Source: a virus (taxonomy: Duplodnaviria > Caudoviricetes). From it: a stretch of 64,000 nt of DNA. Shown in pieces: positions 533 through 53,641 of this stretch (positions within the stretch are counted from its first letter, which is position 1; every line of letters begins with the position of its first letter). A program made the translations under genes and the position numbers. Below the pieces are notes generated by a model, which was not told where the DNA came from, did no database searches, and saw only the letters and a program-made list of their open reading frames with translations. The stretch lies in IMG/VR virus record IMGVR_UViG_2926528486_000004, positions 885 to 64,884 of that record; one strand, written 5' to 3'.

Positions 533-562
533 ATTATACACGAACGAATGTTCTATATTCAA
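533..562 (-). promoter_or_regulatory. sigma-A promoter with LexA/DinR (SOS) box
   Basis: CGAACGAATGTTCT at 541-554 matches the Bacillus SOS box and lies between -35 TTGAAT (562-557) and -10 TATAAT (538-533). Confidence 0.8.
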
Positions 563-1353
563 CCGTTAAGCCAATCGTAAAATACTCCGCTTTCATTAAC
601 CGTCCGCTGGCGTACGATTCGAGTAGTCGCGTTCTGCCATGCTCGATACAAATAATCGTCCAGCTTGCGGATCTTTTGCTGCTTCGTTTTCAGTATCGCA
701 TTATGGAACGCAGTCACGAACGGCTCCGGATTATCCTCGATGACCACTTCGCTGTTGATTGATCGTTTAGCTCGAAGAAGAATGCCGTAATATTTATAAA
801 TTTCTTCGGCGATGAAGTACCGTTCCATGGCGTTGTAGACGTCATTTGGCAGCGAATCTTTTAAGGCTTGCGATGGGACTGACGTGTCTAAATATGTATT
901 ATTTTTAAGATTAATAGAATCTAAAGGTTCGTTTTCGTTTTTCGCTAGTTTAGCGTTACTCTCCGTTGGCTCTGCGCTATCTACACGATTGGACACGCTC
1001 GACTGGTCATTGCGAGTAAAACGCAGCTCATTGACGGGTAGAATGCGCAATATGTTGGCGCCCTTCCCTCCGTTTATCTTACGTAGCGTGGCGACTTTCT
1101 CAACGATGCCAAGCTCGCCAAGCTTATTGACGATGCGCCTCGCGGTCTTCTCACTTTTGCCGATAATCTCCGCCAAGGTTGCGGCTTTTAAATGTGCTGC
1201 TCCCGCAAACTTGACGGCATATCGTGCGATGGTACTCAGCGTCAGGCGATCCGTGTCGTTTAGTTCGAATGCGTTACGTTTGATATGCGTGTCAACTGCG
1301 TCGTTTAATTGCTGCGTCGTATTGAAAGTTTGGTAGTCCGATAGATAGTGCAT
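559..1353 (-). CDS. HTH replication-initiator-like protein
   Basis: wHTH (TLAEIIGKSEKTARRIVNKL), low-complexity Asn-rich linker, C-terminal ...FYDWL typical of Bacillus phage/plasmid Rep-like proteins. Confidence 0.65.
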   Translation of the reverse strand: MHYLSDYQTFNTTQQLNDAVDTHIKRNAFELNDTDRLTLSTIARYAVKFAGAAHLKAATLAEIIGKSEKTARRIVNKLGELGIVEKVATLRKINGGKGANILRILPVNELRFTRNDQSSVSNRVDSAEPTESNAKLAKNENEPLDSINLKNNTYLDTSVPSQALKDSLPNDVYNAMERYFIAEEIYKYYGILLRAKRSINSEVVIEDNPEPFVTAFHNAILKTKQQKIRKLDDYLYRAWQNATTRIVRQRTVNESGVFYDWLNG

Positions 1354-1386
1354 CAGTTTCGCCCCTTATTCGTTTATTTAAATATA

Positions 1387-1449
1387 ATTATATATCGCTA
1401 TGTCGATATGTCAATCCCTATTTACAAAATATCGATATAACGTTATAAT
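1387..1449. promoter_or_regulatory. Divergent sigma-A promoters with probable XRE operators
   Basis: Minus: TTGACA(1414-1409)-16-TATAAT(1392-1387); plus: TTTACA(1421)-17-TATAAT(1444); imperfect ATATCG..CGATAT palindromes in both spacers. Confidence 0.7.
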
Positions 1450-1484
1450 TAAATCAAATAATCACGGACAAGGAGTGACGCTGA

Positions 1485-1691
1485 ATGCTTTACGTTAAAG
1501 TCTCGGAGATACTCGAAGAACGCAATATCACACGGGCAGCGCTCGCAGAAATGACCGGCTTACGTCCAAATGTGATAAGCGAAATATGCAACAATCAGCG
1601 CACGACTATTAATCGCGAACATATCGCACGTATTGCTAAAGCGTTAGATGTTACGGACACTAATCAATTATTAGAGTTACGCTCACTTTAA
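1485..1691 (+). CDS. XRE/Cro-family HTH regulator
   Basis: 68 aa, ITRAALAEMTGLRPNVISEICNN HTH. Confidence 0.85.
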   Translation: MLYVKVSEILEERNITRAALAEMTGLRPNVISEICNNQRTTINREHIARIAKALDVTDTNQLLELRSL

Positions 1692-2333
1692 AACCATTCG
1701 AATGCCGTCGGTCATTGTTATCGGCTTTGCTTCGGGTGGTTTTTCTTTTTTGAGCGACTGGACAAACGCTGTAAATGACTGCGCTTGGAATATGCGAAAC
1801 GGATAGTCGGCGGCATTTATCGCATATGGACGCTCGCTTAATATAAGGACATGCGGAAATGGTTTCGGCATAATACCTGCGCGATAGAAGTCAACGTATC
1901 GACCTAGCTTTTCCGCCATTTGCCGGTCACTATAAAGCGTACGCTGTACCTCCACGAAAAAGCCAGTCTTGCGATACTGACAATATACGTCCGGCTCAAC
2001 GGTACCTTTCCGTCCGTACTTCGGCTCGACTAAGAACGTCCTTGTCGCACCAAGCATTCGCAGCTCCTTATACACGTCAAGTATCGCGAGGAAGTGGCCG
2101 ATCTTTGCGCTGTTCTTTTTAATCTGCGTCTCTGCACCGAAATATAGAAACGGCACGAACGCTTTCGACCGCTGTATATGACCGTCGCGCCATAAACGAA
2201 GCAACACGTTGTTAGCCGAGTAATTCGGACGCTTGTTATCTGCGAAATGTATTTCCGCAATACTGTCGCGATCCATTACTCGGAATCGATTCAAGTCTGC
2301 GATTATCTCCTTATCTCTCTGCGTCAATGGCAT
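1683..2333 (-). CDS. Replication-relaxation family protein
   Basis: RDKEIIADLNRFRVM...HFLAI...EPD...FFVEVQR motifs; paired with FtsK; start taken at MPLTQRD. Confidence 0.75.
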   Translation of the reverse strand: MPLTQRDKEIIADLNRFRVMDRDSIAEIHFADNKRPNYSANNVLLRLWRDGHIQRSKAFVPFLYFGAETQIKKNSAKIGHFLAILDVYKELRMLGATRTFLVEPKYGRKGTVEPDVYCQYRKTGFFVEVQRTLYSDRQMAEKLGRYVDFYRAGIMPKPFPHVLILSERPYAINAADYPFRIFQAQSFTAFVQSLKKEKPPEAKPITMTDGIRMVLK

Positions 2334-3456
2334 CGTAAAACACATCCTCTTCCGTTAGTTTTTCTTGGTCCTGCGTGACTGGTTTCGTTTTACCTTTCGA
2401 AACCATGAACGGATTTAGTAACTCCTTTGCGTCCCCCATTTCGAGGTACGGCGCCTGCAAGTCGTAAAGTTTGTCGCTATTCATTACAAAGCGTCCAGGT
2501 TCTTCTATCTTCTCCGCGTCAGGCGTATTGACGATTCGTGCCTCCGTTTTGTCTCGCAGCTTAAAGCCCATGCTCACCGTTAAGTTTACGCGAATAGTCG
2601 TGTCTAGGACCTTCGCATTCGGTCGCTGCATCGAAAGGATTGCGAATACTCCGAGCGTCCTACCTATCGCAACAACTTCCGTCAATATCTCCATGACAGT
2701 CTCATCCTTGCGCAGCATGACAAATTCATCGATACACACCACGAGATATGGACGCCTATGTTCCACTGGCAACTCATCGATATGACTGACTTCGAATGTT
2801 TCCGTCAAATCGCTGCGTTCGTCTAGTTCGCGTTTGATGTGACATAGCATCTCCGCGATATCTCTACCGCTGCTCAAGACGCATTGCACATGCTCGACTT
2901 TACGGAAGATATGAAACTCCGACTTCTTGCAGTCGCCTAGGTATAGCTTTAATTCGCTTGGCTTTTTTGCCAGTATCAGCGTAGTTAATATCGACCTCAA
3001 TTGTGTTGACTTACCGCTACCTGTTTCGCCAGCAATAAGGATGTGCGGTTGCTTTAATAAGTCGAATGCTACATAGGCGCCCGTACGATCCTTTCCGCAG
3101 ATTATACCGAGCTTGAGTTTTGTCAACTGTTCGCGAATATCTTCGATGTCATACGCCAAGTCTCCGGTTGATGACTTCGAATAAATCGTCAGTGTATAGC
3201 GTTTGACTTCGCCTTCTAGTCGGATATGTTCTCCGAAGTGTTGTAAGATTGCGAAATAGTTGCGTTTAAGTATGTCGGGATTCAAGCCGTTCGGAAGCGA
3301 GAAAGTATATTGCGTTGAATGGTCGGTGATTTTTACGGAGACTATTTTCGGAAAAATTGGCCGCTCGAGCGTGCCGAGATAAATATTGCCGCTTTTAAAT
3401 GCGCTGATCAACCGTTTCCTTGCGTTAAGGTTCGTGATTAAATGTCGCCAGCTCAT
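2311..3456 (-). CDS. FtsK/SpoIIIE-family ATPase
   Basis: PHILIAGETGSGKST Walker A, VVCIDEF Walker B, ILSMQRP. Confidence 0.9.
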   Translation of the reverse strand: MSWRHLITNLNARKRLISAFKSGNIYLGTLERPIFPKIVSVKITDHSTQYTFSLPNGLNPDILKRNYFAILQHFGEHIRLEGEVKRYTLTIYSKSSTGDLAYDIEDIREQLTKLKLGIICGKDRTGAYVAFDLLKQPHILIAGETGSGKSTQLRSILTTLILAKKPSELKLYLGDCKKSEFHIFRKVEHVQCVLSSGRDIAEMLCHIKRELDERSDLTETFEVSHIDELPVEHRRPYLVVCIDEFVMLRKDETVMEILTEVVAIGRTLGVFAILSMQRPNAKVLDTTIRVNLTVSMGFKLRDKTEARIVNTPDAEKIEEPGRFVMNSDKLYDLQAPYLEMGDAKELLNPFMVSKGKTKPVTQDQEKLTEEDVFYDAIDAER

Positions 3457-3641
3457 TTGAGCCACCCGATAAGCGCGTTCGTTTCGATGAAGTATACGCC
3501 TGCCGCAAGTCCTGCGAGTGGTAGCAATATTCGTATGACTGTGCCTAGTGCGTGAAATCCGTAAGTCTCGGCCGTCTTGTCTACCGCCGCTACCAATATC
3601 GTCGAGCCTGCCGCCAATAACATCGTCGTTGTAAATAACAT
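3453..3641 (-). CDS. Small membrane protein of the FtsK module
   Basis: Two hydrophobic segments; RBS GGAGG before MLFTTT (an upstream start is possible). Confidence 0.6.
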   Translation of the reverse strand: MLFTTTMLLAAGSTILVAAVDKTAETYGFHALGTVIRILLPLAGLAAGVYFIETNALIGWLK

Positions 3642-4107: not shown

Positions 4108-4296
4108 TTATTTTTCACGCATTAATGTATAGAATACTTCGTCAGAGCTTCCAACACCGACTCCGGCAGTAAAAGAACTTATAACTTTCCAGCCTTCTGC
4201 GCCAAGCTTATTTAATTCTTCATCCGGGTTGAACTTCGATTTAAATACGCCCTTTCTATCAAATTTTATCGTTTTATATTCGTATGTATTTATCAC
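4108..4296 (-). CDS. DUF4177-like small protein
   Basis: YEYKTI...EELNKLGAEGWKVIS signature. Confidence 0.75.
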   Translation of the reverse strand: MINTYEYKTIKFDRKGVFKSKFNPDEELNKLGAEGWKVISSFTAGVGVGSSDEVFYTLMREK

Positions 4297-4351
4297 GGTA
4301 TAACCTCCCTTTATTTGCTAATTATACAACATAAAACCATTCGTATGTACA

Positions 4352-43664: not shown

Positions 43665-43924
43665 TCGTACACCTCTTTGTATGTGTACGCCTCAACGTCT
43701 GAACGGCTAATAGCAAATACGCAATCTCCGTCGTAACAGTATACTTCCAAGAAATTAGCTTCGTTGGTATCGTTTAATCCTTCGCGAATTTTCGTAAGTC
43801 CGCTTTTGTCCACTTTAGCGAAATGTGAGCCATCGCCCACAAAAAGTTTTATTTCGTACATCATTTCGCCTCCCTTGCATCCTTGATAAACTCGAATGCT
43901 TCGTAATATTGTTGCTTCTTCCAT
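43661..43924 (-). CDS. Hypothetical protein
   Basis: ORF track; true start probably MMYEIK. Confidence 0.5.
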   Translation of the reverse strand: MEEATILRSIRVYQGCKGGEMMYEIKLFVGDGSHFAKVDKSGLTKIREGLNDTNEANFLEVYCYDGDCVFAISRSDVEAYTYKEVYE

Positions 43925-44874
43925 GCAGGTAAATTTGATCGCTGTGCTCGTCTAACTTGTGCTTTCAATATCTCGAATTCCTCATCCGTAAAATCTTTGG
44001 CGATTACCGTCTTATAGTCGTTATATTTCCATCCGTCAAGGTCAATCGCCGGCGGCGTTTTAGTTCGCCATGCCTTCGTCACTCTTGCGAATTTATCTAG
44101 CAAAGAGATACGCGCCTCTCTCGGTATAAATCTTCCGTAAATTTTATTGCGACTAAACTCGTACTCCCAATCCGCGCCGTAAGTCAGATGATATAAAACC
44201 AGCGTATAGTCCAAGTCATACATTTCGTTGTACACATGCGTTTGCAATTCGTGATCCCTCTTCGGCTCTGCTTGCTCCTTAAAATCCGTATAACTTTTCT
44301 GAAACGATTTAACCTCAAGTCCTACGCGTAATATTTCGCCATCGTCCGTAATGTACTCAAGGATCCCGTCAGGCAATCCGTTTAAGCCGAACTTCTCACC
44401 GTTATGTTCAACTTCGTGAATCTTCTTCACGAAATGTTCAAACGCTGGCTCATTACGTTTAGTTCGCTCGAACTTAAACCGCGGCTTCTTGCCGGTCAGT
44501 TTTTCGAAATGTCGCTCGGCAAGCATTATCTCGCGCTGAATGTAGCCACCAACTTGCGATCCAAGTCCAGTCCAATCTCGTTGATTACGGTTGGGCGGAC
44601 GACCTTCTTCGGCTTTCCTTCCGTAAACAGCCTTCGAATAGAGTTGTCGCTCATCTTTACCGGCAGAACTTGGCGCGAATGTAGGTCGAGGTGTTCCGTC
44701 CGGTGCCGTTTTCCAATTGAAGTAACCCCATTTCGATTGCTCGCGTAAAACTCTCGCGTATTGTTCATAAAATTCAGCGTCCATCGCGTCATCGTACGGT
44801 TGAGGATATCGGTGAAATTCGTCCATATATTCCGCAAAATCTTGCGCTATTTGTTCGGCTAGTTGTTGACTCAA
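43861..44874 (-). CDS. PD-(D/E)XK exonuclease (Cas4/RecB-like)
   Basis: PSSAG, GLPDGIL...LEVKS...HELQ..Y. Confidence 0.75.
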   Translation of the reverse strand: MSQQLAEQIAQDFAEYMDEFHRYPQPYDDAMDAEFYEQYARVLREQSKWGYFNWKTAPDGTPRPTFAPSSAGKDERQLYSKAVYGRKAEEGRPPNRNQRDWTGLGSQVGGYIQREIMLAERHFEKLTGKKPRFKFERTKRNEPAFEHFVKKIHEVEHNGEKFGLNGLPDGILEYITDDGEILRVGLEVKSFQKSYTDFKEQAEPKRDHELQTHVYNEMYDLDYTLVLYHLTYGADWEYEFSRNKIYGRFIPREARISLLDKFARVTKAWRTKTPPAIDLDGWKYNDYKTVIAKDFTDEEFEILKAQVRRAQRSNLPAWKKQQYYEAFEFIKDAREAK

Positions 44875-51060: not shown

Positions 51061-51729
51061 TTAAAGCGCAACAAGGTAATCGGAGTAATCTCCGTATTTC
51101 TTTGAATCGAATTTGCCCGCCAGGCGTTCGAACTTGTGCGAAACTGTCCGTTTATCTATACCGAGTCTTTCTGCTACAAATTTTTGTAGTGATATCGGCC
51201 TGCCAGCCGATTTGTTTGACTCGTAGGTAAGTGCGATGCTGACTAATGCCGTAGTCTCGTCGCAGCTATCGGATAAGAAAGAGTCGATCAGCTCTAACTG
51301 GTCGGCTTTTTTCTTTGAAAATATTTCATCCTCTAAATTTAATTCGCTGGGAATTAAAGATATTTCATCATCCAATTCACCATCAAGGTAATTCGGGTTG
51401 TACGTTTCAAGCTTACGCTTCCGCTTTGATTTCCTATAAATGTCAGTACGCCGACGCTTCCAGAGTAACTTGAAATAACAAGGCTTTCCTGGTCGATTTA
51501 CAAAATCAATCGAGCCATCATAATTATTAACTGCATTTAGTATAGTAAAATTAAACTCCGATATAACATCATTAACATCTGTCTTTAATTGATCAGCGTG
51601 GTATTGAAAGTAAGGTTTGCCGTCCTTACTACCAGCCACTGTTGAATAAATGACTCTATAAATCTCTTCAAATGATGAGTCAGTTCGTTCTTCACGATAT
51701 TCCATTATTAAGTTTTTTATACTTTTCAC
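51061..51729 (-). CDS. Phage sigma-70-like transcription factor
   Basis: Region-2-like DVISEFNFTILNAVNNYD...F, C-terminal HTH VAERLGIDKRTV; GTG start after AAAGGGG. Confidence 0.6.
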   Translation of the reverse strand: MKSIKNLIMEYREERTDSSFEEIYRVIYSTVAGSKDGKPYFQYHADQLKTDVNDVISEFNFTILNAVNNYDGSIDFVNRPGKPCYFKLLWKRRRTDIYRKSKRKRKLETYNPNYLDGELDDEISLIPSELNLEDEIFSKKKADQLELIDSFLSDSCDETTALVSIALTYESNKSAGRPISLQKFVAERLGIDKRTVSHKFERLAGKFDSKKYGDYSDYLVAL

Positions 51730-51899
51730 GTGTAATTTTCCCCTTTCATTGTTTACAATAGGTGATACGTTCAACTTTTAATATCGAACATAAAAATAAA
51801 ATAAATATATATATATATATATTTTGCTTTTCGATATACTAATAATAACCAATAATAGTAATTTTTTATGTATTATTTACTATTCTTACAAATGAAAAA

Positions 51900-51919
51900 A
51901 TGTTCAATCATCTGAACAT
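51900..51919. promoter_or_regulatory. Operator-like palindrome ATGTTCA-N6-TGAACAT (copy 1)
   Basis: Identical arms recur at 53369-53388. Confidence 0.65.
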
Positions 51920-51925
51920 GAAGCG

Positions 51926-51959
51926 AAAAAAAAGAACACTGGGATCATTAGTGTTCTTT
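51926..51959 (-). terminator. Intrinsic terminator after aimP
   Basis: AAAGAACACT-N9-AGTGTTCTTT stem with T-run on minus strand. Confidence 0.8.
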
Positions 51960-51973
51960 CTTACAATTAGTAT

Positions 51974-52117
51974 TTAGTCACCCCCGATTCCACCGCCTCC
52001 TGGTGAAGCAACATTTATTGAATCACTTCCCTCGGTTACTGCTGCGGTAGCTTGTCCGGCTAGAAATCCAAATGTTAATGAAGTTACAATTAAAAAGGCT
52101 AGTACGATTTTTTTCAA
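51974..52117 (-). CDS. aimP: Arbitrium pro-peptide AimP (47 aa; not in ORF track)
   Basis: AAGGAG RBS overlapping aimR stop, TTG start; MKKIVLAFLIVTSLTFGFLAGQATAAVTEGSDSINVASPGGGGIGGD*: signal peptide plus Gly-rich C-terminal peptide. Confidence 0.88.
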   Translation of the reverse strand: MKKIVLAFLIVTSLTFGFLAGQATAAVTEGSDSINVASPGGGGIGGD

Positions 52118-52129
52118 TTTTCCATCTCC

Positions 52130-53290
52130 TTATGCGATATTTATATTGCACATTACAGTCGCAGAGAATATATATCCAGGGAATTTTTCTATCTCTCTTC
52201 TCGGTAGTTCAGCGAAAAATCTATCTCCTTTTTCTATAAAACTTGCTAATGATTGAAGTAATAAATGTGGATCTTCTTTGGCTATTCCAAGGTAACATAA
52301 TGCAAATGGATTTGTGCTGTGTTCTTCACGATCGTAAAAAATCTCATTAACTTTCTCATACTCCCCGATTCTCGCGTAATAATGCATTTTTTCTAGGTTA
52401 TCGCACGTTTCGTTTTCCGAAGAGGCTTGACCCCACAAAGTATTGACGAAAAAGATATCCAATACCGTAACCTCATTAATTAAGTCATTCCTCTCTTGTT
52501 GCTCAAGTAGCTTTTTATATGTCTCGAAGTACCTAAGACTTAATTCTCGGTTTTCGAAAACGTACGATGTTCCTAATAAGTGATACGTGTGTGCGGTGAA
52601 TTTTGAGCATAAAAATTTTGAATTAATTACATTATTTGCGTAAAAACGAGCTTTTTTTACATCCCCTCTTTGATACAGATATCCTCTTGCGAAAATCTCC
52701 GATAGTCTGGCGCTGTAACATTCCTTAATGTAGACGTTTTTTATTTTATCTATTTCTTTTTCTACTTCCTTTGCAATTTTAAACATAAAAGAGTACTCGC
52801 CCATCCTGTACAGGATATTTGACTTAAGAAGTAACGAAAAAACTCTTGTAGTGTGGTTTTTTGGCTTATACCTTTCTACCGTTTGAAGGATGGATTCTAA
52901 AGGTTTAGATTTTTTTTGGAAACTTAATGCAATACCATAAATCTCCGCCCAATCTTTGTTCTCTCTTGAAACGTTTTTTTGTAAGTCAATCATATTTTGA
53001 AGCAGTTGGAAGTTTCTTGTTGTTGAGGCGTATTCCATGAGGTGTCTACAATTTTGTCTATTCTCTGTCCTTACCATTTCCATTGCTACAATTTCAATTA
53101 ATTCATCTTCCCTTTCGGGGGCTAAGAACCTTATTGCAGATAAATAAAATCTAAAAGACAAATCAGAAGTATCATAATTAAACCATTTAGATATTGATGA
53201 GTCATCATAATTTATCGCACCTGCTAATTCTATATTAGTAACATCCTTGTCCGGTCTCTCCATCAATGTTCGGAATAACTTACGTAACAT
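52130..53290 (-). CDS. aimR: Arbitrium receptor AimR (HTH + TPR, RRNPP family)
   Basis: 386 aa; N-terminal HTH; LMEYAS...NKDWAEIY; KKARFYA...YHLLGTSYVFEN TPR pattern; followed by signal-peptide ORF. Confidence 0.88.
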   Translation of the reverse strand: MLRKLFRTLMERPDKDVTNIELAGAINYDDSSISKWFNYDTSDLSFRFYLSAIRFLAPEREDELIEIVAMEMVRTENRQNCRHLMEYASTTRNFQLLQNMIDLQKNVSRENKDWAEIYGIALSFQKKSKPLESILQTVERYKPKNHTTRVFSLLLKSNILYRMGEYSFMFKIAKEVEKEIDKIKNVYIKECYSARLSEIFARGYLYQRGDVKKARFYANNVINSKFLCSKFTAHTYHLLGTSYVFENRELSLRYFETYKKLLEQQERNDLINEVTVLDIFFVNTLWGQASSENETCDNLEKMHYYARIGEYEKVNEIFYDREEHSTNPFALCYLGIAKEDPHLLLQSLASFIEKGDRFFAELPRREIEKFPGYIFSATVMCNINIA

Positions 53291-53368: not shown

Positions 53369-53388
53369 ATGTTCATATATGTGAACAT
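53369..53388. promoter_or_regulatory. Operator-like palindrome ATGTTCA-N6-TGAACAT (copy 2)
   Basis: In the divergent aimR / XRE intergenic region. Confidence 0.65.
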
Positions 53389-53422: not shown

Positions 53423-53641
53423 GTGATTAGTTACGCTCCCTTGTTTAAGACCTTAGAGGAAAAAGAAATCGTCATAAGTAGTTTGCGTTCTAGAGGTATT
53501 CACCCAACAACAATTGCGAAGATTAACAAAAATGATTCTGTTTCATTACTTAAGATAGAAGAAATTTGCATAATACTTAACGTTCCAATCGAAAAAGTAG
53601 TTGAAATAAAGTTAGAAAGTGCCGATAAATATAATAAATAA
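53423..53641 (+). CDS. XRE (HTH_26)-family regulator
   Basis: GAGGTG RBS, GTG start; ISYAPLFKTL...TTIAKINKNDSVSL..IEEIC..L. Confidence 0.8.
   Translation: MISYAPLFKTLEEKEIVISSLRSRGIHPTTIAKINKNDSVSLLKIEEICIILNVPIEKVVEIKLESADKYNK

Follow-up and report, generated by a model that had tools for sequence, protein, structure and literature searches.

The arbitrium peptide-communication system, by which Bacillus phages choose between lysis and lysogeny, relies on a receptor, AimR, and on the pro-peptide AimP encoded directly behind it. In phages phi3T and SPbeta, the locus is arranged as aimR–aimP–terminator–AimR site–aimX. The phi3T receptor uses inverted ATGTTC boxes lying 25 bp apart downstream of aimP (PMC6458997), and in both phages AimR antiterminates the terminator located just upstream of its site (PMC10769878). 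The output involves aimX with MazEF, acting on MazF, in phi3T (PMC10769878), and is an RNA in SPbeta. A recent preprint has described an extended arbitrium in phages phi106, phiW23, Waukesha92, Wbeta and BMBtp14, where aimR–aimP–aimX is accompanied by a convergent aimC and by aimL (bioRxiv 10.1101/2025.11.23.689978). According to the same source, this extended module, with AimX as a small antirepressor of AimC, and with AimL, accounts for ~75% of the systems and the SPbeta-like type for ~4%, the remainder forming a generic 'RP' class. The present analysis concerns a 64,000-nucleotide stretch of a Caudoviricetes genome (IMG/VR record IMGVR_UViG_2926528486_000004, positions 885 to 64,884), called the window in what follows. 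It carries an aimR–aimP cassette which is followed, on the same strand and in place of aimX, by a sigma-like gene.

The AimR–AimP Pair

An aimR–aimP architecture had been proposed from the letters of the window, as a 386-aa protein with helix-turn-helix (HTH) and tetratricopeptide repeat (TPR) domains, followed by a TTG-started open reading frame (ORF) of 47 aa. The ORF list agrees with this original prediction, with identical sequence. The aimR gene (52130-53290, minus strand, ATG start) encodes 386 residues, with an N-terminal HTH and a TPR-like helical domain, and the aimP gene (51974-52117, minus strand, TTG start) encodes a 47-aa pro-peptide ending in ...VASPGGGGIGGD. Both products pass the curated NCBIfam cut-offs. 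The aimR product scores 242.6 bits against NF038310, "AimR family lysis-lysogeny pheromone receptor" (cut-off 70, model positions 7-365 of 365), as well as 173.6 bits against Pfam AimR PF22871 (cut-off 26.7); the aimP product scores 43.3 bits against AimP_fam NF033802 (cut-off 35, E = 3.1e-11), with residues 1-42 covered. The proposed architecture is further upheld by the fold. An AlphaFold2 model of the receptor, built on 25 relatives (predicted local distance difference test, pLDDT, 93.1; predicted template-modelling score, pTM, 0.88), was compared with the PDB by Foldseek, and the 15 top matches listed are AimR structures only (SPbeta, phi3T, Katmira33 and ATCC13952), with E-values from 1e-11 to 1e-9 and template-modelling (TM) scores of 0.69-0.83. 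Other RRNPP receptors match far less well, PlcR with E = 1.8e-3 and a TM score of 0.39, and Rap with TM scores of at most 0.57.

The nearest relatives of the receptor share 60% (Cytobacillus, named by NCBI), 54% (Neobacillus), 50% (Heyndrickxia) and 45% (Peribacillus) identity with it, and the source databases assign all four to the AimR family. All AimRs of the phage collection lie at or below 27% identity, and a nucleotide search of this collection gave zero matches. An exhaustive search with AimR returned 428 cluster representatives at E <= 1e-3, 35 of them at E <= 1e-30. A FastTree phylogeny with an arbitrary root was computed on 80 rows: the window, P0002-P0060 of 330-430 aa, 16 loci and 6 published phages; shorter fragments, P0061-P0172 and loci L018, L019 and L021-L023 were left out. 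The window receptor pairs there with its 60% relative (support 99), within a 27-row group (support 96) that includes the receptors of L002 and L017. SPbeta-type phages, Waukesha92, B83, Tavor_SA and KLEB27-1 fall outside a surrounding group of 61 rows (support 93). Both by curated profile and by fold, the receptor groups with AimR proteins and not with other RRNPP proteins. It is the single AimR of its 5.58-Mb genome.

The two genes are tightly joined, since aimP starts 12 nt past the end of aimR. As had been noticed, the aimR stop codon TAA (52132-52130) overlaps the ribosome-binding site AAGGAGA (52131-52125), which itself lies 7 nt ahead of the TTG at 52117. AimP had also been said to bear a Sec signal peptide, and its layout as read from the sequence would suit this (basic MKK N-terminus, 18-residue hydrophobic stretch, A-T-A|A site), so that a signal peptide is predicted. 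The claim that aimP is unannotated fails, because the exact 47-aa protein exists in NCBI, UniRef and nr, and a gene model is thus available. Behind aimP lies a hairpin (51928-51962, minus strand), made of two arms (51928-51940 and 51950-51962) forming a 13-bp stem with a 9-nt loop, and followed by a T run. A simple terminator scan missed it, its loop limit being 8 nt. The fold (-12.5 kcal/mol, z = -2.44) is equalled by 5 of 200 shuffles. The hairpin is therefore a plausible intrinsic terminator, as had been stated, though not a very strong one, so that the word "strong" in the earlier description has to be dropped.

The pair is thus a true arbitrium pair in a temperate phage. A relic cassette, or an RRNPP pair of another kind than arbitrium that plays no part in the choice between lysis and lysogeny, was weighed as an alternative against these results. 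The evidence is entirely computational, and the low G+C content of the module sets it apart, as foreign, from the remainder of the prophage (0.31 for a small HTH gene divergent from aimR, 0.34 for aimR, 0.42 for aimP and 0.39 for the sigma-like gene, between flanks at 0.51 for the primase gene and 0.45 for the next gene). Against such a relic stand the intact, full-length match of both genes to the curated models, a fold far closer to AimR than to PlcR or Rap, and a prophage which looks complete, and this explanation is considered very improbable. The receptor–peptide pair in itself is ordinary: such pairs are already named by curated models, and this one is present in public protein databases.

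A Sigma-Like Gene in the Position of aimX

The 268 nt that follow aimP on the gene strand (51706-51973) contain no ORF of at least 30 aa, hence no aimX-like ORF; an RNA may be encoded there. The next gene, at 51061-51705 on the minus strand, encodes 214 aa from a GTG at 51705, in accordance with its public gene model of 214 aa, and is probably related to sigma-70-family factors of the extracytoplasmic function (ECF) type. The original prediction gave the cassette as the aimR–aimP pair, which stands; it missed this gene, as well as the divergent HTH gene and a palindrome described below.

The relationship to sigma factors is remote. A Pfam sigma domain was found in none of the 18 members of the sigma-like family, which show scattered HTH matches only. 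The NCBIfam type III-E sigma model matches the protein below threshold (E = 1.8e-5), a PDB profile search gives a weak match to RpoE (E = 0.097), and 4 of the 18 relatives are named sigma-24 family by JGI. The AlphaFold2 model (pLDDT 76) shows two helical blocks separated by a disordered linker (105-122), and its top Foldseek matches are mostly ECF and other sigma factors, with TM scores of 0.2-0.35. The decisive result for the sigma identity is a profile–profile comparison: when the family was aligned by hhalign with 22 ECF sigma domains of the host, a probability of 96.1% and E = 3.1e-9 were obtained over 146 columns covering both domains. The product of 51061-51705 can thus be regarded, with good confidence, as a divergent ECF-like sigma factor.

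The linkage of this gene to arbitrium loci is tight. A scan of 27 loci with the sigma-family profile found 12 with a sigma-like gene directly behind aimR–aimP on the same strand, namely L005 (the window), L006-L008, L011-L014 and L016-L019, L017 and L018 being near-duplicates; as for the others, L003 has a 19.5-bit match elsewhere and 14 have none. The reverse search, starting from the sigma profile in 269 genomes of the host's family, retrieved 11 places in 10 genomes, and an AimR-like frame lies directly upstream in all 11. Two of these places had been missed by the AimR search (L056, E = 1e-42; L061, E = 1e-32). In the other direction, those genomes contain 14 AimR places, and at 3 of them (L009, L010 and L015) the sigma-like gene is lacking. 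The sigma-linked receptors occupy several distant branches of the tree, and their peptides vary (PGGG, EKVGG/DKVGG and LPRGG types). In the window, the sigma-like gene also makes up a single low-GC island together with the small HTH gene, aimR and aimP (0.31-0.42, versus 0.45-0.51 in the flanks).

The sigma-like gene seems to possess a promoter of its own. An ECF-promoter-like element, TATGTTCGATA-N12-CGTATCAC, is found on the minus strand at 51792-51762, ~55-85 nt ahead of the sigma start. When the 110 nt upstream of the gene were aligned for 11 loci, an A-rich run, GTGCGCGAAA, a gap of 12-14 nt and CGTC or CGAC were found in common. The pattern AAC...CGT is the usual look of ECF promoters, and ECF sigma genes usually activate themselves.

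A run of (TA) repeats also occurs at 51805-51825, in the stretch of 22% GC that separates aimP from the sigma-like gene; none is seen at the corresponding place in L017, L006 and L019.

The Palindrome and the Small HTH Gene

The cassette is bracketed by two exact copies of the palindrome ATGTTCA-N6-TGAACAT, the only exact ones in the 64 kb. The downstream copy (51900-51919, strand not applicable) lies 8 nt past the T run of the terminator. The upstream copy (53369-53388) lies in the promoter region shared by aimR and a divergent small HTH gene, and overlaps promoter-like hexamers on both strands. Tolerating as many as 2 mismatches gives 3 matches in 64 kb for 0.19 expected, a number that none of 100 shuffles reaches. 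The downstream copy is retained at the same position in L006, L017/18/23, L019 and L011-L014. The small Cro/CI-type HTH gene itself (53423-53641, plus strand) encodes ~72 aa from a GTG at 53423; Pfam HTH_26 is matched with E = 3.4e-4 on a 95-aa frame, of which the relatives align from residue 24.

AimR was the first candidate for palindrome binding, given the ATGTTC boxes and the antitermination known in phi3T. In such a scheme, ATGTTC-N8-GAACAT would be the operator of AimR itself, with phi3T-like antitermination into the sigma gene; the upstream copy would serve for autoregulation, and another target would be left to the small HTH protein. The hexamer is indeed that of the phi3T AimR boxes (PMC6458997), the site lies 8 nt past the terminator T run, a distance which matters for antitermination (PMC10769878), and L006 keeps the palindrome with an AimR whose TPR part is only 29% identical and whose HTH part is 44-46% identical. 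The spacer is at odds with this, with 8 bp instead of 25, and SPbeta AimR no longer binds once more than 2 bp are removed from its spacer (PMC6458997). The distribution of the site points the same way. The palindrome is found in L008, L011-L014 and KLEB27-1 despite AimR HTH regions only 5-26% identical to that of the window, thus no closer than those of loci lacking the site. Ten distinct loci have a small HTH gene of the family found in the window ahead of aimR and divergent from it, and 9 of these 10 (the exception being L002) carry the upstream palindrome, for none of the 13 loci with upstream sequence that lack the small HTH. For these counts, one position of each arm could be Y/R and as many as 2 mismatches were tolerated; L019 is cut on its upstream side, and the palindrome comparison did not include the duplicates L018, L021 and L023. 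The downstream copy, with up to 3 mismatches, is found in 8 of the 11 distinct sigma-bearing loci versus 1 of 13 others.

Since the palindrome tracks the small HTH gene and not the similarity of the AimR HTH regions, it was assigned to the small HTH protein. The AimR heads are set wide apart, and so short a spacer also fits them less well than it would a small HTH protein acting as a dimer. Binding of the palindrome by the small HTH protein is accordingly held to be rather likely, as judged from these co-occurrences, and its use as AimR operator unlikely.

A Possible Link between AimR and the Sigma-Like Gene

A working scheme can be drawn from these elements. AimP would be exported through the Sec route, probably cleaved after A-T-A at residue 25, and then processed extracellularly into a short, Gly-rich peptide with PGGGGIGG(D) as its core. 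The host oligopeptide permease would import this peptide (13 Opp-type peptide-binding proteins are encoded in the host genome), and its binding to the TPR domain would switch AimR off. Peptide-free AimR would favour the lytic path by allowing expression of the ECF-like sigma gene, either through read-through of the aimP terminator or through activation at the sigma promoter, which is of ECF type and probably self-amplifying. The order of aimP, terminator and site found here is the arrangement experimentally shown for phi3T/SPbeta (PMC10769878). The small HTH protein, bound to the palindrome at both ends of the cassette, would gate aimR–aimP, its own gene and the sigma gene. Secretion, processing, the extent of the peptide and the driving of lytic genes by the sigma factor are presumed steps of this scheme.

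Several results weigh against the reading in which the sigma-like gene is the output. As regards its identity, TIGR02937 gives 22 bits on the protein, below the curated cut-off of 42.9, and Foldseek gives zero matches at E <= 1e-3 with the model. L002, whose AimR is 45% identical, has no sigma-like gene within 2.8 kb. The primase is 60-65% identical across the loci, so that the co-location may reflect a conserved backbone, and the loci bearing sigma and aimR genes are kin rather than independent samples; the counts given above therefore show tight linkage, not proof of regulation. The conserved promoter-like element of the sigma gene would allow its expression without read-through from aimP. 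An AimR operator of the known type (6-bp boxes ~25 bp apart, as demonstrated for SPbeta and phi3T only) was not found in the interval from aimP to the sigma gene. The one repeat with a long spacer that occurs there, AATAGTAA-N15-TTACTATT, is estimated to be an AT-rich chance occurrence and is absent from the relatives; no long-spacer operator of AimR type is common to the window, L017, L006 and L019. The search for a sigma regulon was equally negative, with no excess of direct repeats across the window or of k-mers common to 28 intergenic gaps, a CG[AC]AA density of 6.6 per kb in the gaps versus 6.8 elsewhere, and top scores only ~1 bit above block shuffles when a two-block weight matrix, derived from the 11-locus element, was run over the window.

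Part of these observations would be expected if the sigma-like gene were not the arbitrium output at all. It would then be governed only by the small HTH protein and by its own promoter, AimR acting elsewhere, for example on the small HTH gene or at a distant site, and the adjacency would be an inherited order. The own promoter-like element, the primase–HTH–aimR–aimP–sigma order kept as a backbone, the lack of a recognisable AimR operator between aimP and the sigma gene, and the terminator lying in between all agree with this. It accounts less well for the position of the independently found sigma-family genes, directly behind aimR in 11 of 11 cases in spite of distant AimR branches and differing peptides, and in every arbitrium system studied, it is the gene immediately behind aimP that is regulated. 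Such an inherited adjacency is thus given a low probability. Control of the sigma-like gene by AimR appears somewhat more probable than its absence, and the same modest preference is given to the explanation as a whole, that of a working arbitrium unit with the sigma-like gene as output.

The Peptide Signal and Its Relatives

The peptide had been described as unlike the SAIRGA/GMPRGA type and closer to Gly-rich PGGG types, which is borne out by the relatives. The ORF following aimR was read in the available loci, giving 23 distinct AimPs, of which 11 have a P-G-G-G core. Besides that of the window, these end in ...GPGGGIGGNRYVRS (L002), ...GDPGGGGI (L003), ...MDPGGGIGN (L004), ...IPGGGGGIGGG (L006), ...KDPGGGGH (L007), ...ADPGGGGH (L016), ...ACPGGGGGGGNSMC (L017), ...RDPGGGL (L019), ...AGPGGGAG (L020) and ...SEPGGGGW (published phage Waukesha92). 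The AimP of phage B83 ends in ADPGGSVG, as also given in its paper (PMC6669507). The presence of the core in 11 of 23 AimPs, Waukesha92 included, shows that the Gly-rich PGGG type is real and already occurs in published phages. This type spans distant receptor branches, which bears on cross-talk between phages.

The peptide had also been suggested as a possible new specificity. A word-based search with the C-terminus of the window AimP found no match except AimP itself. A degenerate PGGGGIGGD pattern was found in 4 IMG/VR contigs, in all cases within large proteins of high-GC phages and with no AimR nearby. The window peptide thus looks like a new variant of a known Gly-rich type, its exact C-terminus being found in no other AimP retrieved.

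The mature signal had been placed in the last 6-10 residues, which is plausible but not assured. The relatives conserve the AimP core from the proline onward, and residues beyond the PGGG core are present in L002 (...GPGGGIGGNRYVRS), L017 (...PGGGGGGGNSMC) and L009, so that the mature peptide need not coincide with the very C-terminus.

Tandem copies of the presumed mature unit were observed in two other AimPs. Those of L012 (frame ~2561-2698) and L056 (frame 2395-2577, minus strand) end in ...SEKVGGIVTYSEKVGG and ...SDKVGGFILFSDKVGG, respectively, each with two copies. Such tandem units suggest where a unit ends, and that two signal copies may be carried per pro-peptide in these loci; the SEKVGG and SDKVGG repeats point to units of ~6 residues in this sister group.

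Two further observations concern the relatives. Genome G059 contains two modules of the primase–aimR–aimP–sigma-like type (L008 and L016), whose peptides end in NDPGTGGH and ADPGGGGH and whose receptors are sister rows in the tree, which offers a natural case of cross-talk between two prophages. In L002 (Peribacillus), the small HTH protein encoded upstream of aimR ends in ...VEQVKPHGGIGGN, nearly equal to the core of the neighbouring AimP (...GPGGGIGGNRYVRS); the two stretches concerned are 1994-2263 (minus strand) and 4166-4318. This tail could be due to chance among Gly codons, to a recombination scar, or be a peptide-like tail on a DNA-binding protein.

The Prophage Setting

The window corresponds to contig C10:37803-101802 of the 5.58-Mb genome. 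The G+C content of the host contigs is 0.36-0.40, and that of C10 rises to ~0.45 between ~37 and 102 kb. The 3' end of a tyrosine integrase gene lies at 1-154 on the plus strand (gene start at C10 36919; Pfam Phage_integrase, 132.4 bits). Behind it come the RepA-like, replication-relaxation and FtsK/SpoIIIE genes, together with those of an amidase and a tail endopeptidase, and the element further encodes ThyX, dUTPase, ribonucleotide reductase, DNA polymerase, primase, DnaB and a DnaC-like protein. The element is thus an integrated siphovirus-type prophage of ~65 kb, of the KLEB27-1 type, and it looks complete.

Two side observations can be added. Between the integrase and the lysis genes, the block at 559-3465 (RepA-like HTH_36, replication-relaxation, FtsK/SpoIIIE) has the gene set of the variable 2.5-kb block reported in phage 268TH007 (PMC9476937). 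Beside the DNA polymerase, a 337-aa protein (43861-44874) matches PHROG 1706, "CRISPR/Cas system associated" (E = 1.9e-39) and has a weak match to an exonuclease family; a Cas4-like nuclease belonging to the replication module is its probable identity.

Comparison with Known Systems

The output side of the locus is the point most worth following, since the published outputs leave the generic 'RP' loci unexplained. A sigma-like gene takes the place of aimX here and in at least 10 related loci, and in no case did the gene occur away from aimR. Gating of this gene by AimR, if real, would turn the peptide signal into a transcription switch of the all-or-none kind. On this basis, a broader proposal can be put forward tentatively, at slightly less than even confidence: the four genes (small HTH repressor, AimR, AimP and self-amplifying ECF-like sigma factor) may form a further, undescribed type of arbitrium output, in which the peptide would decide whether the sigma factor fires and commits the cell to lysis, and which would move as a unit among ~65-kb Bacillaceae phages while swapping receptor–peptide specificities.

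Compared with phi3T and SPbeta, the locus has the same receptor family and fold, a pro-peptide with a signal peptide directly downstream, a terminator after aimP which is followed at once by an inverted repeat, and the ATGTTC hexamer, as in phi3T. In contrast, AimR identity is only ~17-20%, the peptide is Gly-rich and longer instead of being of the xxRGA form, and the repeat has an 8-bp spacer rather than 25 bp and tracks the small HTH gene instead. A 214-aa sigma-like gene lies downstream, not aimX, and the phage is of 65 kb, versus ~130 kb for SPbeta-like phages.

The extended arbitrium shares with the window a tie between arbitrium and small HTH switch regulators, and the Waukesha92 AimP, ending in SEPGGGGW, is of the same PGGG type. 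The window differs in having neither a small aimX ORF nor a convergent HTH gene downstream of aimP: all ORFs of at least 80 aa from aimP down to 48283 are on the aimR strand, and the only small HTH gene is upstream of aimR. This single gene is divergent from aimR, and the sigma-like gene occupies the aimX place. In the scheme of bioRxiv 10.1101/2025.11.23.689978, such a locus would be counted among the generic 'RP' systems left unexplained, and the word "sigma" is absent from the text of this preprint.

The closest overall likeness in gene order is with KLEB27-1 (vB_BauS_KLEB27-1, OM654379), an isolated temperate phage of ~65 kb (64,960 bp) whose genes gp46-gp51 follow the same order as in the window: helicase, primase, two HTH genes on the opposite strand, an AimR-like regulator, AimP and an annotated RNA polymerase sigma factor. 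KLEB27-1 also has a palindrome, ATGTTTA-N6-CGAACAT, upstream of aimR, together with the FtsK, replication-relaxation, HTH, tyrosine recombinase and ribonucleotide reductase gene set. Its AimR is only ~25% identical and belongs to another branch, its peptide ends in ...YKTADIRPGG with aimP left unannotated, and its annotated sigma factor is not detectably related to that of the window by BLASTP or by the A2 profile. At its start, this aimP (L031:2915-3049) runs over the 3' end of the AimR-like gene as annotated, the model of which is probably too long. Arbitrium is not mentioned in the KLEB27-1 record (OM654379), nor in the announcement of the related temperate phages 268TH002 and 268TH007, which carry the FtsK, replication-relaxation, HTH, recombinase and ribonucleotide reductase set (PMC9476937). 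To judge from literature listings, no paper describing an aimR–aimP–sigma layout was found in the literature covered, which did not extend to the 2019 survey of AimR clades (Stokar-Avihail et al.) or to any supplements. With respect to all these systems, the novelty of the locus is thus architectural: a divergent sigma factor replaces aimX, and the operator attributed to a small HTH protein brackets the cassette.

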